DNA from: a phage
Length of the DNA stretch: 42,499 nucleotides
Reading direction: 5' to 3' (one strand)
Sequence record: OZ418230.1
Below are positions 21,383 through 40,084 of the stretch, one piece after another; within the stretch, counting starts at the first letter, position 1; each line of letters begins with the position of its first letter. A model generated the notes under the pieces. The model worked only from the letters and a program-made list of their open reading frames with translations, ran no database searches and was not told where the DNA came from. The translations under genes were made by a program, and so were the position numbers.

Positions 21383-21610
21383 ATGGATATAAGCCCCTTA
21401 CTTCATGCACTTTGTGCTGTGGCTGCGCAGATACTGGTTGGTCTTTTTACCGGAAACTGGGCTTACGGAGCGATAGCCGGTTGTACGTTCTTCATTGCGC
21501 GTGAACATACCCAGGCAGAATATCGCTGGATTGAAATGTTCGGGCATGGCAAGCGAATGAATATGCCGTGGTGGGGCGGTTTTGATGTTACGCCATATGG
21601 GCTGGACTGA
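21383..21610 (+). CDS. hypothetical small hydrophobic protein
   Basis: 75-aa ORF with hydrophobic N-terminus; its last codons run into the icd-homologous segment in a different frame, so could be fortuitous. Confidence 0.3.
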
Positions 21611-21749
21611 AGCCGCAGACCTGATTGTTAAAGGTATGGAAGGCGCAATCAACGCCAAGACTGTAACCTATGACTTCGAACGTCTGATGGAAGGCGCTAA
21701 ATTGCTGAAATGTAGCGAGTTTGGCGACGCGATCATCAAGAACATGTAA
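21585..21749 (+). other. attP-associated substitute 3' end of host icd (isocitrate dehydrogenase)
   Basis: Open frame translating [54 protein letters not shown], near-identical to the E. coli Icd C-terminus; phages 21 and e14 integrate in icd. Confidence 0.8.
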
Positions 21750-21772
21750 TCACTACATGTGTTAAATATTTA

Positions 21773-21800
21773 AACGGGCGTGTTATACGCCCGTTGTTTT
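21773..21800 (+). terminator. rho-independent terminator following the icd 3' segment
   Basis: Stem aacgggcg/cgcccgtt with 7-nt loop followed by gtttt. Confidence 0.65.
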
Positions 21801-21815
21801 ATGATGATGTAAAAT

Positions 21816-21852
21816 CTTCCCCAAAACTTTCCCCAAAACCCTTCCCCAAAAC
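21816..21852. repeat. three tandem 12-13 bp direct repeats (c/t)ttccccaaaac; candidate integrase arm-type sites
   Basis: cttccccaaaac / tttccccaaaac / ccttccccaaaac in direct succession between the icd segment and the int 3' end. Confidence 0.6.
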
Positions 21853-21862
21853 TGGCTATTTT

Positions 21863-23005
21863 CTATGCTGTTTTGATATCTACGATAACCCAGTCTTTAC
21901 CACGATCATCATTGTATCGGTCGGTCATTTTTCTGGATTTATGGCCTAACAACTTTTGCGTATCCAGACCCTGTTCCCGATATAACCGTTCTGACAGAGA
22001 TCGCTGCTCATGAAATGTGGGCGCAGTTCCTTGCTCCCATTTTATGCCACATTTTTCCCTGGCCTTTTTAAAAGCCGTTGTCAGAGTATTTGCAGAAACC
22101 TGGTCTCCTCTGTTTGCTTGAGAGGTAGTGTGACGGTAATGGACCAGATATTTACTAACAACAGCATCCCTGCACTGAGATATAACTTCACGAAGGGTAA
22201 TATTCAGAGCATCGCATTTCAGGTTAAGCGGAATAGCAAGTTTTGAACCGGTTTTTTCCTGAGTAATGTGCAACATGTCGTCCCAGATATCAGAGAATTT
22301 CAAATTGCAGATATCACCTAAACGTTGTCCAGTAACAAGAGCAAGTAGCATGCCGCATTTTAAATAGGGCTGCCGTCTGCTTACGCTTTCAAATATTGCC
22401 TGCCATTCGGGCAGTGACAATCTTTGGCGGTTTACTCGATTTCGCGGTTGTTTTGTTGCCTGCGCTGGGTTAAATCCTGGCGGAACATGTCCTGCGTGTT
22501 GTGCTTCTTTGAAGACGTCGATCAACACCATTCTCACGACTTGCGCCATCCTGTTATGACCTTCAGCCTTTACAGCATCAATTATTTCGGCAATATCAAG
22601 TGCGGTAATATCCTTGAGGTGTTGCATTCCACAATGCTCACGGAAAAGACGAATGGGTTTGCCTTTTTGCCGATAGGAGTTGGGTCTTAGTTCATTATGT
22701 TGCAGCCTGTCCTCCTGGATAGAAATATATTTATCAAGCCATTCTGTCACCGTAATTTCTGAGCGCCTGCCTTTCATTCTTTCCAGACGCTCATTGACGC
22801 TTAATATTTGTCGGGTACGTTGTTCAGCAATAATGGTATTTGCTTCAGTAGCAACTTGTTTTGCTTCATTCTCATCAGTTCCTAAGCTATGAAAACGACC
22901 GGATAGTGGATGTTTGTATTGCCAATATACCTTTCCGGTTCGCTTATCTAATTTGCAATATAAATTGGGTATAGAGATTTTGTGAGATCGGGGTCTAGCA
23001 GCCAT
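21863..23005 (-). CDS. int: tyrosine integrase, phage 21/e14 (icd-targeting) type
   Basis: 380 aa with tyrosine-recombinase C-terminal region (…HEQRSLSERLYREQGLDTQKLLGHKS…); resembles e14 IntE from memory; adjacent to attP. Confidence 0.9.
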   Translation of the reverse strand: MAARPRSHKISIPNLYCKLDKRTGKVYWQYKHPLSGRFHSLGTDENEAKQVATEANTIIAEQRTRQILSVNERLERMKGRRSEITVTEWLDKYISIQEDRLQHNELRPNSYRQKGKPIRLFREHCGMQHLKDITALDIAEIIDAVKAEGHNRMAQVVRMVLIDVFKEAQHAGHVPPGFNPAQATKQPRNRVNRQRLSLPEWQAIFESVSRRQPYLKCGMLLALVTGQRLGDICNLKFSDIWDDMLHITQEKTGSKLAIPLNLKCDALNITLREVISQCRDAVVSKYLVHYRHTTSQANRGDQVSANTLTTAFKKAREKCGIKWEQGTAPTFHEQRSLSERLYREQGLDTQKLLGHKSRKMTDRYNDDRGKDWVIVDIKTA

Positions 23006-23231
23006 CAGCGATTATCCGTTGGAGTTTTGGGTTTGCGTTTATTGGGAGTTGCGGTTCTGCAAGCGTTCCTACAAAACGGGAATTTCGGTCAATCATCCAG
23101 TAGCGACCAACTTTTATAGCGGGTGGGGCCATCATTTTCCCTTGCGCGTATTTTTTCAGAACTCGCTCACTTGGTGCTAAGTCCCCAAATTCTTCTTTAG
23201 CCCAGTCCTGTAAAGTGATTAGTCGAGACAT
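22995..23231 (-). CDS. xis: excisionase
   Basis: 78-aa ORF overlapping int start by 11 bp, position typical of xis. Confidence 0.75.
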   Translation of the reverse strand: MSRLITLQDWAKEEFGDLAPSERVLKKYAQGKMMAPPAIKVGRYWMIDRNSRFVGTLAEPQLPINANPKLQRIIADGC

Positions 23232-23370
23232 TTGTCCTCCTCTTAGCTGCTGAGGGAGTTTGTGACCGATATATCTGACATGATATTAAGCTCATGGCAG
23301 GTACATCTCTTGACTGGTCATAGAGATAAATTTAATGCTGAGAAATGCAGTATTGAATTTATCAATTTTT

Positions 23371-23610
23371 CTATTTCCTGCGTATGGCACGTAACTTCTT
23401 AATGTGTTCTGCCGTTTCGATCTCTTCTGCTATCCGATCTGCATCAGCTTTATTCACAGGTTCAAAGTCATGATTAAAGCGGAACATGCTGGCGATACAT
23501 GTTCTGCCTTTTCGGATGTAGTGAACTTTGTTGTAGGTAGAACGCAGGATTTTGCAGGGAGTGCCGTGGTGGTCGACGTACCAGGTGTTAGGAAAAATGA
23601 TTCTGAGCAT
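23371..23610 (-). CDS. hypothetical protein
   Basis: 79-aa ORF in the distal pL operon; no family recognised. Confidence 0.4.
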   Translation of the reverse strand: MLRIIFPNTWYVDHHGTPCKILRSTYNKVHYIRKGRTCIASMFRFNHDFEPVNKADADRIAEEIETAEHIKKLRAIRRK

Positions 23611-23657
23611 TTTTACACCTCAGTTGGACGATGTTGAAATTTGCTGCTTTGAGGCCA

Positions 23658-23876
23658 TCACAATCCCCATTGTTTGTTCTTAAGTTCGATCTCCTCCTGG
23701 CAACTTGCACAAGTCCGACAACCCTGAACGACCAGGCGTCTTCGCTCATCTATCGGATCGCCACACTCACAACAATGAGTGGCAGATACAGTCTGGTAGT
23801 TCAGACGACGCATTTTTATTGCTGTATTGCGCTGTAATTCTTCGATTTCTGATGCTGAATCAATGATGTCTGCCAT
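23658..23876 (-). CDS. TraR/DksA-family C4 zinc-finger protein
   Basis: 72 aa with CxxC…CxxC (CCECGDPIDERRRLVVQGCRTCASCQ) typical of the TraR/DksA zinc ribbon. Confidence 0.6.
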   Translation of the reverse strand: MADIIDSASEIEELQRNTAIKMRRLNYQTVSATHCCECGDPIDERRRLVVQGCRTCASCQEEIELKNKQWGL

Positions 23877-23974
23877 CTTCCATTAATCCCTGAATTGTTG
23901 GTTAATACGCTTGAGGGTGAATGCGAATAATAAAAAAGGAGCCTGTAGCTCCCTGATGATTTTGCTTTTCATGT

Positions 23975-24274
23975 TCATCGCTCCTTAAAGACGCCGTTTA
24001 ACATGCCGATCGCCAGGCTTAAATGAGTCGGTGTGAATCCCATCAGCGTTACCGTTTCGCGGTGCTTCTTCAGTACGCTACGGCAAATGTCATCGACGTT
24101 TTTATCCGGAAACTGCTGTCTGGCTTTTTTGATTTCAGAGTTAGCTTGACGGGCAATGCTGCGAAGGGCGTTTTTCTGCTGAGGTGTCACTGAACAAGCC
24201 CCATGCCGGAAAGCATAAGCACACAGAATATGAAGCCCGCCGCCAGAAAAATGCATTCTGTTGTTGTCATGCAA
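23975..24274 (-). CDS. hypothetical protein
   Basis: 99-aa ORF, start uncertain (internal Met possible). Confidence 0.45.
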   Translation of the reverse strand: MHDNNRMHFSGGGLHILCAYAFRHGACSVTPQQKNALRSIARQANSEIKKARQQFPDKNVDDICRSVLKKHRETVTLMGFTPTHLSLAIGMLNGVFKER

Positions 24275-24458
24275 GCTCTCTCTCGTTTGCCTCTGCTTTC
24301 GCCGCCATCATTTCCAGCTTTTGTGAAAGGGATGCGGCTAACGTATGAAATTCTTCGTCTGTTTCTGCTGGTATTGGCACAAACCTGACTCCAATTTGAG
24401 CAAGGCTATGTGCCATCTCAATGCTCGTTCTTAACTCAACAGGAGATGCTTTGTGCAT
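24267..24458 (-). CDS. lambda Orf63-like small protein
   Basis: 63 aa ([23 protein letters not shown]…), matches my recollection of lambda orf63 and its position upstream of orf60a/exo. Confidence 0.6.
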   Translation of the reverse strand: MHKASPVELRTSIEMAHSLAQIGVRFVPIPAETDEEFHTLAASLSQKLEMMAAKAEANERELA

Positions 24459-24619
24459 ACAGCCCCTCGTTTATTATTTATCTCCTCAGCCAGCCGCTGG
24501 GCTTTCAGTGGATTTTGGATAACAGAAAGGCCGGGAAATACCCAGCCTCGCTTTGTAACGGAGTAGACGAAAGTGATCGCGCCTACCCGGATATTATCGT
24601 GAGGATGCGTCATCGCCAT
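24431..24619 (-). CDS. lambda Orf60a-like small protein
   Basis: 62-aa ORF overlapping the 3' end of exo as lambda orf60a does. Confidence 0.55.
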
Positions 24620-25290
24620 TGCTCCCCAAATACAAAACCAATTTCAGCCAGTGCCTCGTCCATTTTTTCGATGAACTCCGGCACCATCTCGTCAAAACTC
24701 GCCATGTACTTTTCATCCCGCTCAACCACGACATAATGCAGTCCTTCACGCTTCATACGCGGGTCATAGTTGGCAAAGTACCAGGCATCTTTTCGTGTCA
24801 CCCACATGCTGTACTGCACCTGGGCCATGTAAGCCGACTTTATGGCCTCGAAACCACCGAGCCGGAACTTCATGAAATCCCGGGAGGTAAACGGGCATTT
24901 CAGCTCAAGGCCATTGCCGTCACTGCATAAACCATCGGGAGAGCAGGCGGTGCGCATACTTTCGTCGCGATAGATGATCGGGGATTCAGTAACATTCACG
25001 CCGGAAGTGAATTCAAACAGAGTTCTGGCGTCGTTCTCGTACTGTTTTCCCCAGGCCAGCGCCTTAGCATTAACTTCCGGAGCCACACCGGTGCAAACCT
25101 CAGCCAGCAGGGTGTGGAAGTAGGACATTTTCATGTCAGGCCACTTCTTTCCTGAGCGGGGCTTTGCTATCACGTTGTGAACTTGTGAAGCGGTGATGAC
25201 GCCGAGCCGTAATTTGTGCCACGCATCATCTCCCTGCTCGATAGCTCTCACGTCGATCCCGGTACGCTGCAGGATAATGTCCGGTGTCAT
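24610..25290 (-). CDS. exo: lambda exonuclease (Red-alpha)
   Basis: 226 aa, near-identical to lambda Exo. Confidence 0.95.
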
Positions 25291-26072
25291 GCTGCCACCT
25301 TCTGTTCAGTGGCTTTTTGTTTCAGGAATCCAAGAGCTTTCACTGCTTCGTCCTGTGTCAGTTCTGACGATGCACGAATGTCGCGGCGAAATATCTGGGA
25401 ACAGAGCGGCAATAAGTCGTCATCCCATGTTTTATCCAGGGCGATCAGCAGAGTGTTAATCTCCTGCATGGTTTCATCGTTAACCGGAGTGATGTCGCGT
25501 TCCGGCTGACGTTCTGCAGTGTATGCGGTATTTTCGACAATGCGCTCGGCTTCATCCTTGTCATAGATACCAGCAAATCCGAAGGCGAGACGGGCACACT
25601 GAATCATGGCTTTATGCCGTAACATCCGTTTGGGATGCGACTGCCACGGCCCCGTGATTTCTCTGCCTTCGCGAGTTTTGAATGGTTCGCGGCGGCATTC
25701 ATCCATCCATTCGGTAACGCAGATCGGATGATTACGGTCCTTGCGGTAAATCCGGCATGTACAGGATTCATTGTCCTGCTCAAAGTCCATGCCATCAAAC
25801 TGCTGGTTTTCATTGATGATGCGGGACCAGCCATCAACGCCCACCACCGGAACGATGCCGTTCTGCTTATCAGGGAAGGCGTAAATTTCTTTCGTCCACG
25901 GATTAAGGCCGTACTGGTTGGCGACGATCAACAATGCGATGAACTGCGCATCGCTGGCATCACCTTTAAATGCCGTCTGGCGAAGAGTGGTGATCAGTTC
26001 CTGTGGGTCGACAGAATCCATGCCGACACGTTCAGCCAGCTTCCCTGCCAGCGTTGCGAGTGCTGTACTCAT
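25287..26072 (-). CDS. bet: Red-beta single-strand annealing protein
   Basis: 261 aa, lambda Bet. Confidence 0.95.
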
Positions 26073-26077
26073 CCGTT

Positions 26078-26494
26078 TTATACCTCTGAATCAATATCAA
26101 CCTGGTGGTGAGCAATGGTTTCAACCATGTACCGGATGTGTTCTGCCATGCGCTCCTGAAACTCAACATCGTCATCAAACGCACGGGTAATGGCTTTTTT
26201 GCTGGCCCCGTGGCGTTGCAAATGATCGATGCATAGCGATTCAAACAGGTGCTGGGGCAGGCCTTTTTCCATGTCGTCTGCCAGTTCTGCCTCTTTCTCT
26301 TCACGGGCGATCTGCTGGTAGTGACGCGCCCAGCTCTGAGCCTCAAGACGATCCTGAATGTAATAAGCGTTCATGGCTGAACTCCTGAAATAGCTGTGAA
26401 AATATCGCCCGCGAAATGCCGGGCTGATTAGGAAAACAGGAAAGGGGGTTAGTGAATGCTTTTGCTTGATCTCAGTTTCAGTATTAATATCCAT
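26078..26494 (-). CDS. gam: Gam, RecBCD inhibitor
   Basis: 138 aa, lambda Gam (long form). Confidence 0.95.
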
Positions 26495-26592
26495 TTTTTA
26501 TAAGCGTCGACGGCCTCACGAAACATCTTTTCATCGCCAATAAAAGTGGCGATAGTGAATTTAGTCTGGATAGCCATAAGTGTTTGATCCAT
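26449..26592 (-). CDS. kil: Kil (host cell-division inhibitor)
   Basis: 47-aa product [47 protein letters not shown] as lambda Kil; the track ORF 26449..26718 is an upstream extension. Confidence 0.8.
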
Positions 26593-26725
26593 TTTTTGGG
26601 ACTCCTGGCTGATTAAGTATGTCGATAAGGCGTTTCCATCCGTCACGTAATTTACGGGTGATTCGTTCAAGTAAAGATTCGGAAGGGCAGCCAGCAACAG
26701 GCCACCCTGCAATGGCATATTGCAT
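26561..26725 (-). CDS. cIII: CIII (FtsH inhibitor stabilising CII)
   Basis: Manual translation gives the 54-aa [54 protein letters not shown], lambda CIII; below the track length cutoff. Confidence 0.8.
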   Translation of the reverse strand: MQYAIAGWPVAGCPSESLLERITRKLRDGWKRLIDILNQPGVPKNGSNTYGYPD

Positions 26726-26797
26726 GGTGTGCTCCTTATTTATACATAACGAAAAACGCCTCGAGTGAAGCGTTATTGGTATGCGGTAACGCCGCGC

Positions 26798-27166
26798 TCA
26801 GGCGGCTTTGATAGTCATATCATCTGAATCAAATATTCCTGATGTATCGATATCGGTAATTCTTATTCCTTCGCTACCATCCATTGGAGGCCATCCTTCC
26901 TGACCATTTCCATCATTCCAGTCGAACTCACACACAACACCATATGCATTTAAGTCGCTTGAAATTGCTATAAGCAGAGCATGTTGCGCCAGCATGATTA
27001 ATACAGCATTTAATACAGAGCCGTGTTTATTGAGTCGGTATTCAGAGTCTGACCAGAAATTATTAATCTGGTGAAGTTTTTCCTCTGTCATTACGTCATG
27101 GTCGATTTCAATTTCTATTGATGCTTTCCAGTCGTAATCAATGATGTATTTTTTGATGTTTGACAT
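26798..27166 (-). CDS. ea10: Ea10 protein
   Basis: 122 aa matching lambda Ea10. Confidence 0.9.
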   Translation of the reverse strand: MSNIKKYIIDYDWKASIEIEIDHDVMTEEKLHQINNFWSDSEYRLNKHGSVLNAVLIMLAQHALLIAISSDLNAYGVVCEFDWNDGNGQEGWPPMDGSEGIRITDIDTSGIFDSDDMTIKAA

Positions 27167-28775: not shown

Positions 28776-29675
28776 TTATTTGATTATTTCTTTTATAAAG
28801 ACTTCTTTCGGTTGGTATTTTTTATCTGATGATTTGAGCTGGTACGTTATTGTTATATCAGCACGTACAGAAAATTTACCTGCAAAATCTGATGGGTTTA
28901 CGTTGGGGCCAAGAACCATATTTACTCTTCGATCTATTAATCCAGGGATAACAGCAGCCCAACCTTTCTCTGGATTGTCGAGGTCTAATGCACGGATTTC
29001 AACATCAACATCAAAATGATCCTGAGTATATGACTCTGGTGTGAAGACAACTTCAGTTGGGGCTTTTTTAATGGTTTCAGCGGGAATGGTCACTGTACCA
29101 CCCCCTGTACCTATGACCATCGTAGATCCTTCGTCTGCCCTAGCTGGGGCAAGCGTCTTAATGGAACTTTTGGCAAGAGTCTTCTTATTGGTTACCGTGC
29201 TTTCTATGATTGCTTGAAGACGGTCAGGTGAAATATTAGCCTCACCGGCACCAATATTGATGATTGTATTGTTATTTGCTTCAAAGTGGGAGGTGTTGCT
29301 TGGAGCCATAGCCTTAGTTGCTAGAACTAAGCCATATCCAACCAGACCAATAACAACAGCACCAACGAGAGCGTTTCTCATTTTCCCATTTCCGATCTTT
29401 GCATGAGCGCCAGCAAGAAACTTGTCCATTTCTTCTTGGCTACCAAAGAGGAGTTTAATAACAATATCTTCATAAAGGCTTCCTGCTTCTAATCGCGCAA
29501 CATGCACCGATATATCAAGGATATTAGCCCCTGTCAGTTCCTGCAAAACACCTTCTGATTGTTTTGCGATGGCCTCCCACCCTTGAAGGGAGGTAATCAC
29601 ATCTTTGATGCTTACAGGTTCTTTAGTTGAATAATATATGTTTTCGGTAAAGGTTAAAGATAATTCTTGGGACAT
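28776..29675 (-). CDS. uncharacterised membrane-anchored protein in the rexAB position
   Basis: 299-aa ORF downstream of cI on the same strand, gagg SD, one predicted TM helix (MRNALVGAVVIGLVGYGLVLATKA), low GC; no family recognised. Confidence 0.7.
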   Translation of the reverse strand: MSQELSLTFTENIYYSTKEPVSIKDVITSLQGWEAIAKQSEGVLQELTGANILDISVHVARLEAGSLYEDIVIKLLFGSQEEMDKFLAGAHAKIGNGKMRNALVGAVVIGLVGYGLVLATKAMAPSNTSHFEANNNTIINIGAGEANISPDRLQAIIESTVTNKKTLAKSSIKTLAPARADEGSTMVIGTGGGTVTIPAETIKKAPTEVVFTPESYTQDHFDVDVEIRALDLDNPEKGWAAVIPGLIDRRVNMVLGPNVNPSDFAGKFSVRADITITYQLKSSDKKYQPKEVFIKEIIK

Positions 29676-32156: not shown

Positions 32157-32854
32157 AAAACATCGCCGCACAGATGGTTAACTTTGACCGTGAGCAGATG
32201 CGTCGGATCGCCAACAACATGCCGGAACAGTACGACGAAAAGCCACAGGTACAGCAGGTAGCGCAGATCATCAACGGTGTGTTCAGCCAGTTACTGGCAA
32301 CTTTCCCGGCGAGCCTGGCTAACCGTGACCAGAACGAACTGAACGAAATCCGCCGCCAGTGGGTTCTGGCTTTCCGGGAAAACGGGATCACCACAATGGA
32401 ACAGGTTAACGCAGGAATGCGCGTAGCCCGTCGGCAGAATCGACCATTTCTGCCATCACCCGGGCAGTTTGTTGCATGGTGCCGGGAAGAAGCATCCGTT
32501 ATCGCCGGACTGCCAAACGTCAGCGAGCTGGTTGATATGGTTTACGAGTATTGCCGGAAGCGAGGCCTGTATCCGGATGCGGAGTCTTATCCGTGGAAAT
32601 CAAATGCGCACTACTGGCTGGTTACCAACCTGTATCAGAACATGCGGGCCAATGCGCTTACTGATGCGGAATTACGCCGTAAGGCCGCAGATGAGCTTGT
32701 CCATATGACTGCGAGAATTAACCGTGGTGAGGCGATCCCTGAACCAGTAAAACAACTTCCTGTCATGGGCGGTAGACCTCTAAATCGTGCACAGGCTCTG
32801 GCGAAGATCGCAGAAATCAAAGCGAAGTTCGGACTGAAAGGAGCAACTGTATGA
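32153..32854 (+). CDS. P: replication protein P (DnaB helicase loader)
   Basis: 233 aa, lambda P. Confidence 0.95.
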   Translation: MKNIAAQMVNFDREQMRRIANNMPEQYDEKPQVQQVAQIINGVFSQLLATFPASLANRDQNELNEIRRQWVLAFRENGITTMEQVNAGMRVARRQNRPFLPSPGQFVAWCREEASVIAGLPNVSELVDMVYEYCRKRGLYPDAESYPWKSNAHYWLVTNLYQNMRANALTDAELRRKAADELVHMTARINRGEAIPEPVKQLPVMGGRPLNRAQALAKIAEIKAKFGLKGATV

Positions 32855-33141
32855 CGGGCAAAGAGGCAATTATTCATTACCTGGGGACGCATAATAGCTT
32901 CTGTGCGCCGGACGTTGCCGCGCTAACAGGCGCAACAGTAACCAGCATAAATCAGGCCGCGGCTAAAATGGCACGGGCAGGTCTTCTGGTTATCGAAGGT
33001 AAGGTCTGGCGAACGGTGTATTACCGGTTTGCTACCAGGGAAGAACGGGAAGGAAAGATGAGCACGAACCTGATTTTCAAGGAGTGTCGCCAGAGTGCCG
33101 CGATGAAACGGGTATTGGCGGTATATGGAGTTAAAAGATGA
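32851..33141 (+). CDS. ren: Ren
   Basis: 96 aa, matches lambda Ren. Confidence 0.9.
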   Translation: MTGKEAIIHYLGTHNSFCAPDVAALTGATVTSINQAAAKMARAGLLVIEGKVWRTVYYRFATREEREGKMSTNLIFKECRQSAAMKRVLAVYGVKR

Positions 33142-33214
33142 CCATCTACATTACTGAGCTAATAACAGGCCTGCTGGTAATCGCAGGCCTTTTTATTTGG
33201 GGGAGAGGGAAGTC

Positions 33215-33655
33215 ATGAAAAAACTAACCTTTGAAATTCGATCTCCAGCACATCAGCAAAACGCTATTCACGCAGTACAGCAAATCCTTCCAGACCCAAC
33301 CAAACCAATCGTAGTAACCATTCAGGAACGCAACCGCAGCTTAGACCAAAACAGGAAGCTATGGGCCTGCTTAGGTGACGTCTCTCGTCAGGTTGAATGG
33401 CATGGTCGCTGGCTGGATGCAGAAAGCTGGAAGTGTGTGTTTACCGCAGCATTAAAGCAGCAGGATGTTGTTCCTAACCTTGCCGGGAATGGCTTTGTGG
33501 TAATAGGCCAGTCAACCAGCAGGATGCGTGTAGGCGAATTTGCGGAGCTATTAGAGCTTATACAGGCATTCGGTACAGAGCGTGGCGTTAAGTGGTCAGA
33601 CGAAGCGAGACTGGCTCTGGAGTGGAAAGCGAGATGGGGAGATCGGGCTGCATGA
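33215..33655 (+). CDS. ninB: NinB (Orf recombination mediator)
   Basis: 146 aa from MKKLTFEIRSPAHQQNAIHAVQQILPD…, lambda NinB. Confidence 0.9.
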   Translation: MKKLTFEIRSPAHQQNAIHAVQQILPDPTKPIVVTIQERNRSLDQNRKLWACLGDVSRQVEWHGRWLDAESWKCVFTAALKQQDVVPNLAGNGFVVIGQSTSRMRVGEFAELLELIQAFGTERGVKWSDEARLALEWKARWGDRAA

Positions 33656-34179
33656 CTATCAAATCAAATACGCCAGCACACGACAAGGACTGCTGGCAAA
33701 CGCCGCTTTGGCTTTTTGATGCACTGGATATTGAGTTTGGATTCTGGCTGGATTCGGCAGCGAGCGACAAAAATGCTCTGTGTGCTCACTGGCTAACTGA
33801 GGCCGACGACGCGCTCAATTCTGAGTGGGTAAGCCACGGTGCAATCTGGAATAACCCACCGTACAGCAATATCAGGCCGTGGGTGGAAAAAGCCGCTGAG
33901 CAGTGCATACAACAGCGACAGACGGTAGTTATGCTTGTGCCAGAGGATATGTCAGTCGGATGGTTCAGCAAGGCTCTGGAGAGTGTCGACGAAGTTCGCA
34001 TTATCACTGATGGACGGATTAATTTTATCGAACCATCGACAGGGCTGGAGAAGAAGGGAAACAGCAAAGGCTCCATGCTGCTGATTTGGCGACCGTTCAT
34101 CAGTCCTCGACGGATGTTTACTACCGTATCCAAAGCGGCATTGATGGCGATCGGGCAGGGCGTCAGGAGGGCGGCATGA
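33652..34179 (+). CDS. DNA N6-adenine methyltransferase (orphan, phage Dam-like)
   Basis: NPPY catalytic motif (AIWNNPPYS); ATGA overlap with ninB stop; occupies the ninC position. Confidence 0.75.
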
Positions 34180-34352
34180 GGCGACAGCGACGAAGTTTCA
34201 CCGACATCATCTGCGAAAACTGCAAATACCTTCCAACGAAACGCTCCAGAAATAAACGCAAGCCAATCCCAAAAGAATCTGACGTAAAAACCTTCAATTA
34301 CACAGCTCACCTGTGGGATATCCGGTGGCTAAGATATCGTGCGAGGAAATGA
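34176..34352 (+). CDS. ninE: NinE
   Basis: 58 aa [58 protein letters not shown], lambda/DLP12 NinE; ATGA overlap with the methyltransferase. Confidence 0.8.
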
Positions 34353-34696
34353 CAATGGATTATTCACAGTTAAGTGATTTTGAAATTAACAGAATGGTAG
34401 GAGACATAATTTTTAAAGGCCTTTGGGCAAGTAAACCGGAAACATCAGGGAATAACACCAACAAATGGTATTACGGAAATGCTGATACAACTTTTGAGCC
34501 ATTAAATCATTTGCCTGACTACTGCAATGATCCGAGCGCTTCATGGCCGATTATTGAGAAATACAGGATTTCTATCTTAGACCAGTTAACTGAATGGTGT
34601 GTGGATGCAAAAGGCGTAAGCCCAATATTTGATACCAGACCTCTCCGCGCCGCCATTATTGTCTTTCTCCTGATGCAGGAGGCCAATAATGCTTAG
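34349..34696 (+). CDS. hypothetical nin-region protein
   Basis: 115 aa from MTMDYSQ…; ATGA overlap with ninE; no confident family. Confidence 0.5.
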
Positions 34697-34883
34697 CCCA
34701 TCTCAATCCCTTCAATACCTGAAAGGAAGCATAGAGCGGGCTTCAATGTGCACAGAGTGGATTCTATCTAGGTTTAGCGCATACAGAAGATTGCCGGTAA
34801 AGGGCATGCCAAGCAAGTCGATGCTGCATATGCAAAAGAATGCGCGCGGGAAGGTATGGCGAGAACGCAGGTTATCTGGCTGA
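34689..34883 (+). pseudogene. ninF-like 5' fragment fused to unrelated sequence (chimeric ORF)
   Basis: First ~18 codons ([18 protein letters not shown]) match lambda NinF; downstream the product diverges and the NinF CxxC…CxxC cysteines are missing. Confidence 0.5.
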
Positions 34884-34906
34884 AAGAGGGGGTAATTAAG
34901 GCGTGA
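34778..34906 (+). pseudogene. 3' remnant of a ybcO-like (DUF1364) gene, no start codon
   Basis: Alternative frame reads …[31 protein letters not shown], matching the C-terminus of DLP12 YbcO from memory; bounded upstream by TAG stops; its stop overlaps the rusA GTG. Confidence 0.5.
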
Positions 34907-35265
34907 ATACTTACCACATCACACTACCCTGGCCTCCGAGCAATAATCGCTATTATCGCCATAATCGCGGGCGCACGCACGTCAGCGCAGAGGGGCAGGC
35001 ATACCGCGATAACGTCGCCCGAATCATTAAAAACGCAATGCTGGATATCGGCCTGGCGATGCCTGTGAAAATCCGCATTGAGTGCCACATGCCGGATCGC
35101 CGTCGCCGTGACCTGGATAATCTGCAAAAAGCCGCTTTTGACGCACTCACCAAAGCAGGTTTCTGGCTGGATGATGCTCAGGTCGTTGATTACCGCGTTG
35201 TGAAGATGCCTGTTACCAAAGGTGGGAGGCTGGAATTGACCATCACCGAAATGGGGAATGAATGA
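34903..35265 (+). CDS. rusA: RusA Holliday-junction resolvase
   Basis: 120 aa, GTG start, near-identical to DLP12 RusA (…[34 protein letters not shown]…). Confidence 0.9.
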
Positions 35266-35402
35266 TGTTTGAGTTTTATATGGCAGAACGTCTTCGCCAC
35301 CGCTGGGTGCGTCTGCGCTTATATCGTTTCCCCGGTTCTGTTTTGACCGATTACCGAATACTGAAGAATTACGCCAAAACACTGACAGGAGCAGGAGTAT
35401 GA
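35262..35402 (+). CDS. ylcG: YlcG small protein
   Basis: Manual translation gives 46-aa [46 protein letters not shown], as DLP12 YlcG; overlaps rusA stop. Confidence 0.7.
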
Positions 35403-35487
35403 AGTCAGAGATAACAATCAACTAATACTGTTTTGCTGATTTTTGCTTGTAATTGGCGTTCTGGTCTGATTTTTGTGGAGTAAGTTG

Positions 35488-35865
35488 ATGCGTGATATTC
35501 AGATGGTTCTTGAGCGTTGGGGAGCGTGGGCGGCTAATAATCATGAAGATGTGACCTGGTCGTCCATTGCCGCCGGTTTTAAGGGATTAATTCCTTCAAA
35601 AGTAAAATCTCGCCCGCAATGTTGTGACGATGACGCGATGATCATTTGCGGGTGCATGGCCCGTCTGAAAAATAACAACAGCGATTTGCATGATTTGTTA
35701 GTGGACTATTATGTCGGCGGCATGACTTTTATGGCGCTTGCGCGTAAGCATGGTAGATCTGATTGTTGGATTGGCAGGATGCTCCAAAAAGCTGAGGGCG
35801 TAGTGGAGGGCATGCTGATGGTGTTGGATCTCAGATTGGAGATGGATGCTGATTGTTTGAGATAA
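35488..35865 (+). CDS. Q: late-gene antiterminator Q (phage 82 / DLP12 QuuD type)
   Basis: [34 protein letters not shown]… resembles QuuD; start at 35488 preferred over track start 35473. Confidence 0.85.
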
Positions 35866-35894
35866 TTAAAGGAAAAGTTGCTGTCTGGTTATCA

Positions 35895-35921
35895 TTAGAC
35901 TAATGTTTCAAATGTTAGAAT
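35895..35921 (+). promoter_or_regulatory. candidate late promoter pR' (-35 ttagac, -10 tagaat)
   Basis: Sigma70-like hexamers downstream of Q and upstream of a terminator; spacing roughly 15 bp, so tentative. Confidence 0.35.
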
Positions 35922-35963
35922 CGCAACGTAGTTATGATCATATAACAGCTTGTTCCCTGATTT

Positions 35964-35993
35964 AGCCAGCCTCCCCAAAGGCTGGTTTTTTTT
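35964..35993 (+). terminator. tR'-like rho-independent terminator downstream of Q
   Basis: Stem ccagcc/ggctgg with 8-nt loop followed by TTTTTTTT. Confidence 0.7.
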
Positions 35994-36021
35994 CTAATAA
36001 GTATCAATCCGGTTAGGTATT

Positions 36022-36546
36022 TTATTGTTTGACCCATAATAGTTCATTGACATTGAATCCCAATTTTTGAGCAGTACGCACATAGTCTGCTTTTACATTA
36101 TCTGGAATAGTTGGAGTCCGTGCCAGAATCCATAGGTATTCTCTGTTCGGACCACTGACAAGAGCATACTTATACTCATCATCCAGTTTGATTACATTAT
36201 AGCCACCATAGAAGGGGCCAAAAAACGAAACCTTCAACGCTGCAGTTGTATTATCTCCTGTAAAGTATGCTTTACCTTCGCTCTCGCTCCATTTGTTTTT
36301 CGTTGGGTCATATCCACGATTAAGTACACTAATCCCTCCGTCGTTCCGTTTCCCATAAGTGGCGCTGACCTGTTCCAGACCACGTTCAAATCGGTTCTCA
36401 AGCCGAGCTATTTCATACCATTTTCCGAGGTAGCGGTTGGTGTCAAAATTTGTAATCGGCTGCACACCTTTAGGTGGTGTCGGGGCCTTACATGCTATCA
36501 GAGTGAAAGAGAGTGCAATGCCAGTCAACACAGGCCATAACTTCAT
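36022..36546 (-). CDS. Blc-like outer-membrane lipocalin lipoprotein
   Basis: 174 aa with lipobox (LIAC) and strong similarity to E. coli Blc (…YLGKWYEIARLENRFERGLE…KVSFFGPFYGGYNVI…). Confidence 0.8.
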   Translation of the reverse strand: MKLWPVLTGIALSFTLIACKAPTPPKGVQPITNFDTNRYLGKWYEIARLENRFERGLEQVSATYGKRNDGGISVLNRGYDPTKNKWSESEGKAYFTGDNTTAALKVSFFGPFYGGYNVIKLDDEYKYALVSGPNREYLWILARTPTIPDNVKADYVRTAQKLGFNVNELLWVKQ

Positions 36547-36900: not shown

Positions 36901-36911
36901 TGGATTTGCCC

Positions 36912-37817
36912 CTATATTTCCAGACACCTGTTATCACTTAACCCATCACTGGCCCACTGCCGCAGATATTCCCGTGGCGAGCGATAACCCAGCGCACTAT
37001 GCGGATGCCATTCGTTATAATGCTCGAACGCCTCTGCAAGGTTCTTTGCTGCCGTTAACCCGTCTGGTTTGGGCATGATACTGATGTAGTCACGCTTTAT
37101 CGTTTTCACGAAGCTCTCTGCTATTCCGTTACTCTCCGGACTCCGCACTGCCGTGTTCTTCGGTTCAAGTCCCAACATCCTGGCGAACTGACGTGTTTCA
37201 TTCGCCCGGTAGCATGAACCATTATCCGTCAGCCACTCCACTGGAGACGCCGGAAGCTCGCTGCCAAAGCGGCGTTCCACTGCTCCCAGCATGACGTCCT
37301 GTACTGTTTCACTGTCGAAGCCACCCGTTGTGACCGCCCAGTGCAGTGCCTCACGGTCACAGCAGTCCAGCGCGAACGTGACCCGCAGTTTTTCTCCGTT
37401 ATCACAGCGGAACTCAAACCCGTCAGAGCACCATCGCTGATTACTTTCTTTCACAGCCACTCTGCCGGTATGTGCCCGTTTCGATGGCGGTACAGCGGGT
37501 TTTCGCTCAAGCAACAGCGCATTCTGGCGCATGATCCGGTAAACACGTTTGGCATTGATCGCAGGCATACCATCAAGTTCTGTTTGTCTGCGAAGCAGCG
37601 CCCATACCCGACGATAACCATATGTGGGTAGCTCTCCGATAACATGGTGTATACGGCGAAGCACATCCGTATCATCCGTGTGACGGCTGCGGCGGCCGTC
37701 CTTCCAGTCATCGGCTCGTCTGAGAATGACGTGCAACTGCGCACGCGACACCCGGAGACAACGGCTGACGAAGCTTACTCCCCATCCCCGGGCAATAAGG
37801 GCGCGTGCGCTATCCAC
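36912..37817 (-). CDS. insD: IS2 transposase OrfB (InsD)
   Basis: 301 aa, matches IS2 InsD. Confidence 0.9.
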
Positions 37818-38140
37818 TTTTTTGCTCGCCCATATTCAACGGCTTCTTTAAGGAGTTCATTTTCCATCGTTTTTTTGCCGAGCAGACGCTGGAGTTCTTT
37901 AATCTGCTTCATGGCGGCAGCAAGTTCAGAGGCAGGAACGACCTGTTCTCCGGCAGCCACAGCAGTAAGACTTCCCTCCTGGTATTGCTTACGCCAGAGA
38001 AATAGCTGGCTGGCTGCCACACCATGTTGCCGGGCAACAAGGGAGACCGTCATTCCCGGTTCAAAGCTCTGCTGAACGATAGCGATCTTTTCCTGTGTAG
38101 TACGCCGTCTGCGTTTCTCCGGCCCTAAGACATCAATCAT
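37775..38140 (-). CDS. insC: IS2 OrfA (InsC)
   Basis: 121 aa from [40 protein letters not shown]…; overlaps insD (frameshift window). Confidence 0.9.
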
Positions 38141-38231
38141 CTGTTCTCCAATGACTAGTCTAAAAACTAGTATTAAGACTATCACTTAAATAAGTGATAT
38201 TGGTTGTCTGGAGATTCAGGGGGCCAGTCTA

Positions 38232-38236
38232 TTCCG
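38232..38236. repeat. IS2 target-site duplication, right copy (ttccg)
   Basis: Identical to 36896..36900. Confidence 0.85.
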
Positions 38237-39343
38237 CGTCCTGCTCTACGTCTTGTTCGCTCGGCGCAAGGAAATATACGGATGTGTTTCAGCCACGACC
38301 AGAATGAGGATGTTACAGAGAAAATGACAGAGTTTAGTCGTTCTTATCTTGACAAATTAAAGGATGTATCGGGATTTGTGGTTTGTGCAAAATCTCCTAG
38401 CTGTGGTATGGAACGCGTGCGTGTATATGATGAAAATGGTAATCGTGGTCGTAAAGATGGAGTGGGACTATTTACGAGCACGTTGATGGAAAGGTTTTCC
38501 TGGCTACCGGTTGAAGAGGATGGGCGACTACATGATCCAGTGCTTCGTGAAAACTTTGTTGAAAGAGTATTTGCTTTACATGAGCTCAATCATCTTTATA
38601 AAGCGAAATTATCAAGAAGGGAATTATTAGCTTTTCATAGCCGTTATAAGCTTCAGTTGTTGGCGCATAGCCAGGCCGGTTATAAAGAGATGGGGCCATT
38701 TGTGGCTGCAATACATGAGTGGGCAGACCTTGAATCATACTTTGAGGTGTATCGTGAGAAGCTGATGGCGATTCTCAGAAAACCTGCATCACGTAAAAAT
38801 CACACGAATGTGCTGATGCATATACAGGGATATTTTAGTAACTGCTTAAATACACGTCAGCGTAAAGAGTTGAGCGATGTTATACTTAACTATCGAGCTG
38901 GCACGCTACCTCTTCTTGCGCCATTAACTTTGCTGAAGCATTACTTGGCAGAGTATCCTGATGATTATTTGCTTATACAGAATTACTTCCACCCCTATCC
39001 TGATGAACTGGCTCTAAGACTCTTGGTGAACTAGGCGTTTGGAATGCACCAACAAGATGATTTTCTCCTTAGAGAATGTTTACAATCGTAAAAACTTCAC
39101 TATGATATCTATAGTTGTACAGTTTGTAAAAAAATTCGGTTCATGCTTAAGGTAATGTTAATATGTTAATTAATGATTAATAATCAAGCAAGCCAAAAAT
39201 AGTTCTGTTTAATCTAGTATTACATAAATATTTTAAAGAAAATATCAAAGTTCATGATGATATAATGAGATTTTTCTCATTGAAAATATGGCAATTTTAA
39301 TATTTCCACCTATACTTACTTAACTCAAATCTAATTATGTCAG

Positions 39344-40084
39344 GTGGATGGTATGCCATGCATATGTTCTATCATTTTAGTTTTGAACTCGTTTGATATC
39401 CGGCTTGGTAAAGAAAAAATCTCTCTAAAAAAAGGAAGTGTTGTTGCTATAGAATACAATTTAAAAGTTTTCTTTTCTTCAAATAAAGATAATATAATGA
39501 TCGTGGATATTGAAGAGAAAACAGTTAATGACTTCTTTAAAAACAATACACTCTCACCTTTTTCTGTAAGAAGATTTTATTCAGCATACTTGATAGTAAA
39601 CTGTACAGACTATTCATTGTTAAAGAACTTGATAGGTTGCTTGAATTGTGATGGTGAAACTACGGCTGTAGTTAAAAATTCAATATTATTTGCATGTCTT
39701 GCTATTTTATCCTCGGAAAAAATGTTTCAGAGTTTTTTGTTTGGGTGTCTTAATAGTTTAGGAAGCAAAGTTAAGGCTATTATTCACTCGGACATATCTG
39801 CAGCATGGAGACTTTGTGATATTTCTTCAAGACTATGTCTGAGTGAAAGTTTGTTAAAAAGAAAACTAAAACACGAAGGCTTATCATTTAGCAAATTAAT
39901 TCTTGAAGAACGAATGGTGATGGCTGAAAGGTTATTAAGCTACAATTTCTATCCTGTTGGGAAAGTTGCTAAAATATGTGGTTATGAAAGCGCGTCATAT
40001 TTTATAAGTGTTTTCAGAAGATATTTTGGTGTTCCCCCCCATGAATATTCATCAAGATTTTTTTTAGAAAAAGGCAAGATGTAA
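39344..40084 (+). CDS. AraC/XylS-family transcriptional regulator (low GC)
   Basis: C-terminal double-HTH signature (…GYESASYFISVFRRYFGVPPHEYSS…) resembling GadX/Rns-type regulators; gene and upstream region markedly AT-rich. Confidence 0.8.
   Translation: MDGMPCICSIILVLNSFDIRLGKEKISLKKGSVVAIEYNLKVFFSSNKDNIMIVDIEEKTVNDFFKNNTLSPFSVRRFYSAYLIVNCTDYSLLKNLIGCLNCDGETTAVVKNSILFACLAILSSEKMFQSFLFGCLNSLGSKVKAIIHSDISAAWRLCDISSRLCLSESLLKRKLKHEGLSFSKLILEERMVMAERLLSYNFYPVGKVAKICGYESASYFISVFRRYFGVPPHEYSSRFFLEKGKM

Follow-up and report, generated by a model that had tools for sequence, protein, structure and literature searches.

The dam gene product of the Shiga toxin 2 (Stx2) phage VT2-Sakai was reportedly cloned and characterised by Radlinska and Bujnicki in 2001. 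It is the closest described counterpart of the gene analyzed here, an orphan N6-adenine DNA methyltransferase gene in the nin region of a phage (sequence record OZ418230.1; the whole stretch of 42,499 nucleotides is called the window below). The VT2-Sakai enzyme carries the REBASE name M.EcoVT2Dam, with its specificity listed as GATC (PMC6602927, Table 3), and its dam-like GATC activity is given as demonstrated in PMC7139368, citing Radlinska & Bujnicki 2001. Older members of the same family (PF05869/TIGR01712) are HP1 Dam (Orf13) and T1 Dam (M.EcoT1Dam), which are also small orphan phage enzymes. Homology to cellular Dam is confined to the T2/T4 Dam enzymes (PMC7139368).

The product of the gene in the window (Table 1) is identical to M.EcoVT2Dam (BAA94133.1) at 175 of 175 residues. 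The VT2-Sakai gene occupies the same slot between ninB and ninE and has the same overlaps with its neighbours, and the two proteins do not differ at all; the difference lies in the surrounding phage, here a lambda-like Jouyvirus relative of Escherichia phage Lambda_2E9 and not a Stx phage. Identical or nearly identical proteins are found in Phi24B, HK97, 933W-type and Sf101 phages. The family models agree with this. PF05869 (Dam, DNA N-6-adenine-methyltransferase) matched with 218.4 bits over a cut-off of 28.1 (E=6e-65, profile positions 1-167 of 169) and the NCBIfam equivalog TIGR01712 (phage N-6-adenine-methyltransferase) with 265.9 bits over a cut-off of 97.05 (positions 1-165 of 165). The protein also matches PHROG 111, and its best match in PADLOC was to the 'orphan methyltransferase' (oMTase) models. 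Both PF05869 and TIGR01712 are families of DNA methyltransferases and no assignment to a non-DNA family was found, in agreement with a sequence-only reading made earlier, which had called the gene an orphan N6-adenine DNA methyltransferase. That reading had the molecular identity right and missed that the protein is a complete match to an already characterised enzyme. Judging from the sequence, we take the gene to be the already known phage Dam of the VT2-Sakai/HK97 type, real but ordinary. Its annotation goes back to the VT2-Sakai genome record (BAA94133.1 reads 'DNA N-6-adenine-methyltransferase; similar to 933W L0094, HP1 Orf13 and T1 M.T1'), and as a discovery it offers little that is new.

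The NPPY tetrapeptide that the earlier reading had pointed out as the catalytic motif is indeed present, and it is strictly conserved among 42 family members and also in HP1 Dam and T1 Dam, which argues that it is not a chance tetrapeptide. Only 30 residues before it, with no domain in between, lies the motif-I-like LDSAAS. Here L33, D34 and A36 are invariant among the 42 homologues, and L33, D34 and A37 are conserved in HP1 Dam and T1 Dam. With these two enzymes the protein has in common the motifs DxWxTP, LDxxA, NPPYS, ML..D.S.WF and R..FI. The overall identity is only 35% to HP1 Orf13 and 32% to T1 Dam, the genomic contexts differ, and T1 Dam has a 36-residue N-terminal extension and an internal insertion relative to the protein described here.

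An AlphaFold2 model was built on the 42 homologues (mean predicted local distance difference test score, pLDDT, of 76; predicted template modelling score, pTM, of 0.80; residues 37-52 below a pLDDT of 50). The predicted structure is a single domain of about 170 residues with a Rossmann-type class I methyltransferase fold: a predicted strand at residues 31-34 leads into the LDSAAS loop, a second one at 64-67 leads into NPPY, and alternating helices and strands follow. No separate target-recognition domain was visible in the model, so that the enzyme would be essentially a bare catalytic domain. We know of no solved structure for any member of the PF05869/TIGR01712 family. A sequence search of the PDB gave no significant match (the best, to SdiA with E=0.24, is what chance would give), and Foldseek with the model found no match below E=3e-3, the top structural neighbour being PCIF1, the N6,2'-O-dimethyladenosine (m6Am) methyltransferase of the mRNA cap.

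In spite of the reported common target, this is not the same kind of enzyme as the Dam of the host. PF05869 was the sole Pfam match, and neither the family match (MethyltransfD12) nor the motif order (I, target-recognition domain, IV) of the alpha class, to which Escherichia coli Dam, T4 Dam and DpnM belong, was found. The phage enzyme is about 100 residues shorter than these three and lacks their separate target-recognition domain. By family and domain architecture, the phage Dam would thus be a functional analogue of host Dam, neither its orthologue nor a close relative. Three other sets of enzymes were considered as relatives or for comparison and set aside. M.EcoGIX is a plasmid-borne, single-strand-specific methyltransferase and unrelated, the non-specific Hia5/Hin1523 enzymes are related to alpha-class Dam/DpnM and belong to another family (PMC3299994), and the relaxed enzymes PhiOS31_p25 and ARM81ld_p56 make up the third set.

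The orphan status was borne out by the rest of the window. Scans that included PADLOC gave no nuclease or defence model match among the flanking genes and the accessory open reading frames (ORFs), the latter being SieB, N, a 298-residue ORF, DUF2528, the Blc lipocalin, a YbgA-like gene, an AraC-type regulator, Bor and an insertion sequence (IS) transposase. In the complete annotation of the nearly identical Lambda_2E9 there is neither a restriction enzyme nor a second methyltransferase. The claim that no restriction endonuclease partner is nearby therefore stands, and the methyltransferase is a solitary one.

The earlier reading placed the gene in the position of ninC, and the comparison with lambda (NC_001416) supports the slot and the replacement of ninC, but shows that ninD has been replaced as well. 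The homology with lambda is exact up to 33642, has two mismatches at 33643-33644, persists through the ATGA to 33655 and begins again near 34183, within codon 3 of ninE. The lambda segment lost, ninC plus ninD, is about 1 kb long, and both joints are at start/stop overlaps. Lambda NinC, which resembles phosphoadenosine phosphosulfate (PAPS) reductases, and NinD are found in the same slot, and ninC has the same ATGA junction to ninB. However, there is no alignable similarity between the joints, and NinC differs in Pfam family and predicted function. The ATGA overlaps with ninB and ninE, which had been read as translational coupling, were both found in the sequence, and both neighbours were identified by Pfam. 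Such junctions are a general trait of lambdoid nin regions (PMC8022706), and therefore mark the gene only as a normal member of the nin operon. The wider neighbourhood (Pfam and PHROG matches) has a Ren-like gene upstream and NinX, RusA and Q further downstream.

No promoter-like site was detected by the scan between the tR2-like terminator that follows ren and the methyltransferase gene. In phage Phi24B, whose dam product is 100% identical to the VT2-Sakai protein, dam expression changes significantly on prophage induction, with a pattern tied to the lytic cycle (PMC3342100). In the prophage state, dam is probably not expressed. The virion DNA of lambda and P22 is under-methylated by host Dam (PMC8022706). 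We consider it very probable that the gene codes for a phage Dam of the VT2-Sakai/HK97 type, expressed as a delayed-early gene and methylating the adenine of GATC during lytic replication, and that it likely keeps the phage DNA fully methylated. By analogy with lambda, transcription of the nin operon from pR would reach the gene once N allows passage through the tR2-like terminator, and translation would begin at the ATGA-overlapped start behind ninB. The enzyme would then use S-adenosylmethionine (SAM) to methylate GATC at the N6 position on replicating phage DNA and, as a side effect, on that of the host, flipping the base into the NPPY pocket as its structural class suggests. It would duplicate the mark of host Dam and would probably complete it where fast phage replication outpaces the host enzyme. 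The sequence-only reading had proposed modification of the genome during replication, and this fits the position in the pR delayed-early operon as well as the lytic-cycle pattern with which the identical gene of Phi24B is expressed.

Several points weigh against this interpretation. The GATC specificity is a reported one, which reaches us through secondary citations. What phage Dam enzymes do for their phages is poorly understood to date (PMC7556043), and the candidate benefits (topping up of methylation, avoidance of mismatch repair and evasion of restriction) are hypothetical. The model offers no obvious way of reading GATC, as it has a stretch of low confidence (residues 37-52) separating motif I from NPPY and lacks a target-recognition domain. 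The enzyme might perhaps read the site as a dimer or via a disordered loop at residues 37-62, and in any case this is a gap of the whole family and not a peculiarity of one locus. Finally, GATC is under-represented in the window (115 sites observed against 196 expected, a ratio of 0.59), which gives no hint that methylating this site is of advantage. Since CTAG and GGCC are depleted there too, this number is uninformative with regard to specificity.

The best surviving alternative, although a rather unlikely one, is that the main role is anti-restriction, with GATC methylation shielding the progeny in the next host from enzymes of the MboI/DpnII type or others whose sites overlap GATC. An orphan enzyme without nuclease partner would suit this role, as would the incomplete methylation of phage DNA under host Dam alone (PMC8022706) and the broad distribution of the family over phages with many different hosts (1908 records). 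On the other hand, the usual hosts are dam+ enterobacteria with their own GATC sites methylated, in which cutters of unmethylated GATC would not be expected, and the mark would sensitise the DNA to methyl-directed enzymes of the DpnI type. The reported target is the very site of host Dam, and this weakens the simple anti-restriction interpretation in E. coli that the earlier reading had put forward. The same coincidence affects the proposal to obtain the motif by methylome sequencing, whether of phage DNA or a lysogen. In a dam+ host this would be uninformative, because host Dam makes the identical mark and a lysogen probably leaves the gene unexpressed. Attributing a motif to the gene by methylome requires a dam- background, or a deletion mutant in which the methylated fraction of GATC is quantified. 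In our view, what a phage gains from its own Dam, like the reading of GATC, concerns the family as a whole.

A second possibility, which we hold to be improbable, comes from the location of the gene between the recombination genes ninB/orf, directly upstream, and rusA, about 700 bp downstream. Sufficiently fast GATC methylation of nascent and recombinant phage DNA might blind MutH-directed mismatch repair and SeqA, licensing the homeologous recombination behind lambdoid mosaics. Papers on Orf/NinB and RAGNYA do not connect NinB functionally with Dam.

It is much less probable that the enzyme has relaxed or no specificity, like Hia5 or M.EcoGII, giving a broad protection in which GATC is one target among many. 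Non-specific adenine methyltransferases do exist in phages (PMC3299994; PMC7556043), and the very small size of the protein, with no recognisable target-recognition domain, would be in line with this. However, enzymes like Hia5 and M.EcoGII belong to other families (Hia5 being related to alpha-class Dam/DpnM), the VT-2 Dam is reported as a GATC enzyme (PMC6602927, PMC7139368), and the methylomes of a strain with two copies of the gene had no extra motif, though the gene is probably silent in lysogens.

Still less credit can be given to an RNA methyltransferase, acting for example on ribosomal RNA (rRNA) with a partner subunit. The precedent is M.EcoPA8orf6770P of phiPA8, another Stx-phage 'DNA adenine methyltransferase', which requires the winged-helix partner PNB-2 and favours 16S rRNA (PMC10810198), and PCIF1 as the top structural neighbour of the model points the same way. 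This enzyme and M.EcoGV are prophage-borne in lambdoid or Stx phages and annotated as GATC adenine methyltransferases, but they are of the MT-A70 type, with DPPW instead of NPPY and another Pfam family, and they adjoin int (PMC10810198). The precedent is moreover co-transcribed with its partner. The gene in the window codes for NPPY and belongs to PF05869 with no MT-A70 Pfam match, lies in the ninB-ninE slot, and has ninB upstream and not a winged-helix PNB-2; besides, GATC activity on DNA is reported for the identical protein (PMC7139368). Least probable of all is that the gene has lost its activity and is a mere passenger of the nin mosaic. Genes of the nin region are dispensable (PMC8022706) and databases contain truncated or fused versions, but the ORF is intact, keeps all invariant positions of the family, is identical to an enzyme reported active and is at least 95% identical in nucleotides across 1566 genomes.

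The phage Dam gene is among the commonest prophage genes of E. coli. At 95% nucleotide identity or more it was found in 1566 of the 5426 complete genomes (about 29%), with up to five copies per genome. The stretch of 1.2 kb comprising ninB, dam and ninE appears in 427 phage records, at 90% nucleotide identity or more in all but two, and 61 of the 427 span at least 80% of it. Searching with the protein (tblastn) gave family matches in 1908 phage records; the gene is also carried by phage-plasmids, and the protein database holds thousands of 'phage N-6-adenine-methyltransferase' sequences across the Enterobacterales. In some database entries the methyltransferase is joined to a NinE or NinB domain; one of them, with 41 members, is a protein of 233 residues with PF05869 and PF05322. 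Rather than true fusions, such entries may have arisen through frameshifts or gene calling at the ATGA overlaps.

Table 1. Methyltransferase gene and associated features in the window.
Feature	Position	Strand	Basis
tR2-like intrinsic terminator between ren and ninB	33167-33200 (33167-33190 plus T-run)	+	Terminator scan; 8-bp stem with 6 GC pairs, T-run
ninB (orf), recombination mediator, upstream gene	33215-33655	+	Pfam PF05772, E=2e-54
GGGGAG, possible weaker Shine-Dalgarno of the methyltransferase	33636-33641	+	10 nt 5' of ATG, within the 3' end of ninB; putative function
dam-like orphan DNA N6-adenine methyltransferase, coding sequence	33652-34179	+	175 residues plus stop; ATG 33652, TGA 34177-34179
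ATGA overlap, ninB stop (TGA 33653-33655) and methyltransferase start (ATG 33652-33654)	33652-33655	+	Sequence reading
Mosaic cassette replacing lambda ninC and ninD	33656-34182	+	Pairwise alignment with lambda NC_001416 and lambda annotation
LDSAAS codons, residues 33-38, motif-I-like putative SAM-binding loop	33748-33765	+	Conservation and predicted strand
NPPY codons, catalytic motif IV, residues 68-71	33853-33864	+	Sequence reading and alignments
AGGAGG Shine-Dalgarno of ninE	34166-34171	+	Within the 3' end of the methyltransferase; sequence reading
ATGA overlap, methyltransferase stop (TGA 34177-34179) and ninE start (ATG 34176-34178)	34176-34179	+	Sequence reading
ninE, downstream gene	34176-34352	+	Pfam PF05322, E=3e-42

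Within the methyltransferase gene and adjoining it, an Rfam scan of 32500-36500 gave no match. An antisense ORF (33786-34310, minus strand) had no family match and was treated as a shadow ORF. In the position of ninF there is an ORF of 64 residues (34689-34883, plus strand), which is hypothetical in the annotation of related phages, has no Pfam or PHROG match and shows little DNA similarity to lambda ninF. Its first 10 residues seem to resemble P22 NinF, and the ORF could be a ninF that has diverged or undergone a frameshift.

The phage is nearly identical to Lambda_2E9 and its relatives. Compared with Lambda_2E9, the window has an insertion of 1.3 kb at 36901-38231 with IS3-family orfA (37775-38185) and orfB (36912-37817), both on the minus strand; its size suggests an IS2-like element. 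The YbgA-like gene downstream of Q (2-thiouracil desulfurase plus DUF1722, 38204-39034) has lost part of its 5' end to the insertion. The b region of Lambda_2E9 contains a sitABCD manganese/iron transporter operon (5.5 kb, 21575-27123 there), a block that is gone from the window, where about position 21586 joins directly to Lambda_2E9 position 27124. Between N and the repressor gene, presumably at about the position of lambda rexAB, is the 298-residue ORF (28776-29675, minus strand). It had no significant Pfam or PADLOC match and only a sub-threshold one to DUF1206, and may code for an exclusion or defence function not yet characterised. The Blc lipocalin gene (36022-36546, minus strand) lies just after Q and the AraC-family regulator (39344-40084, plus strand) between Q and the lysis genes, which we take to be the position where Stx phages carry stx. 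Both look like cargo of the moron type.
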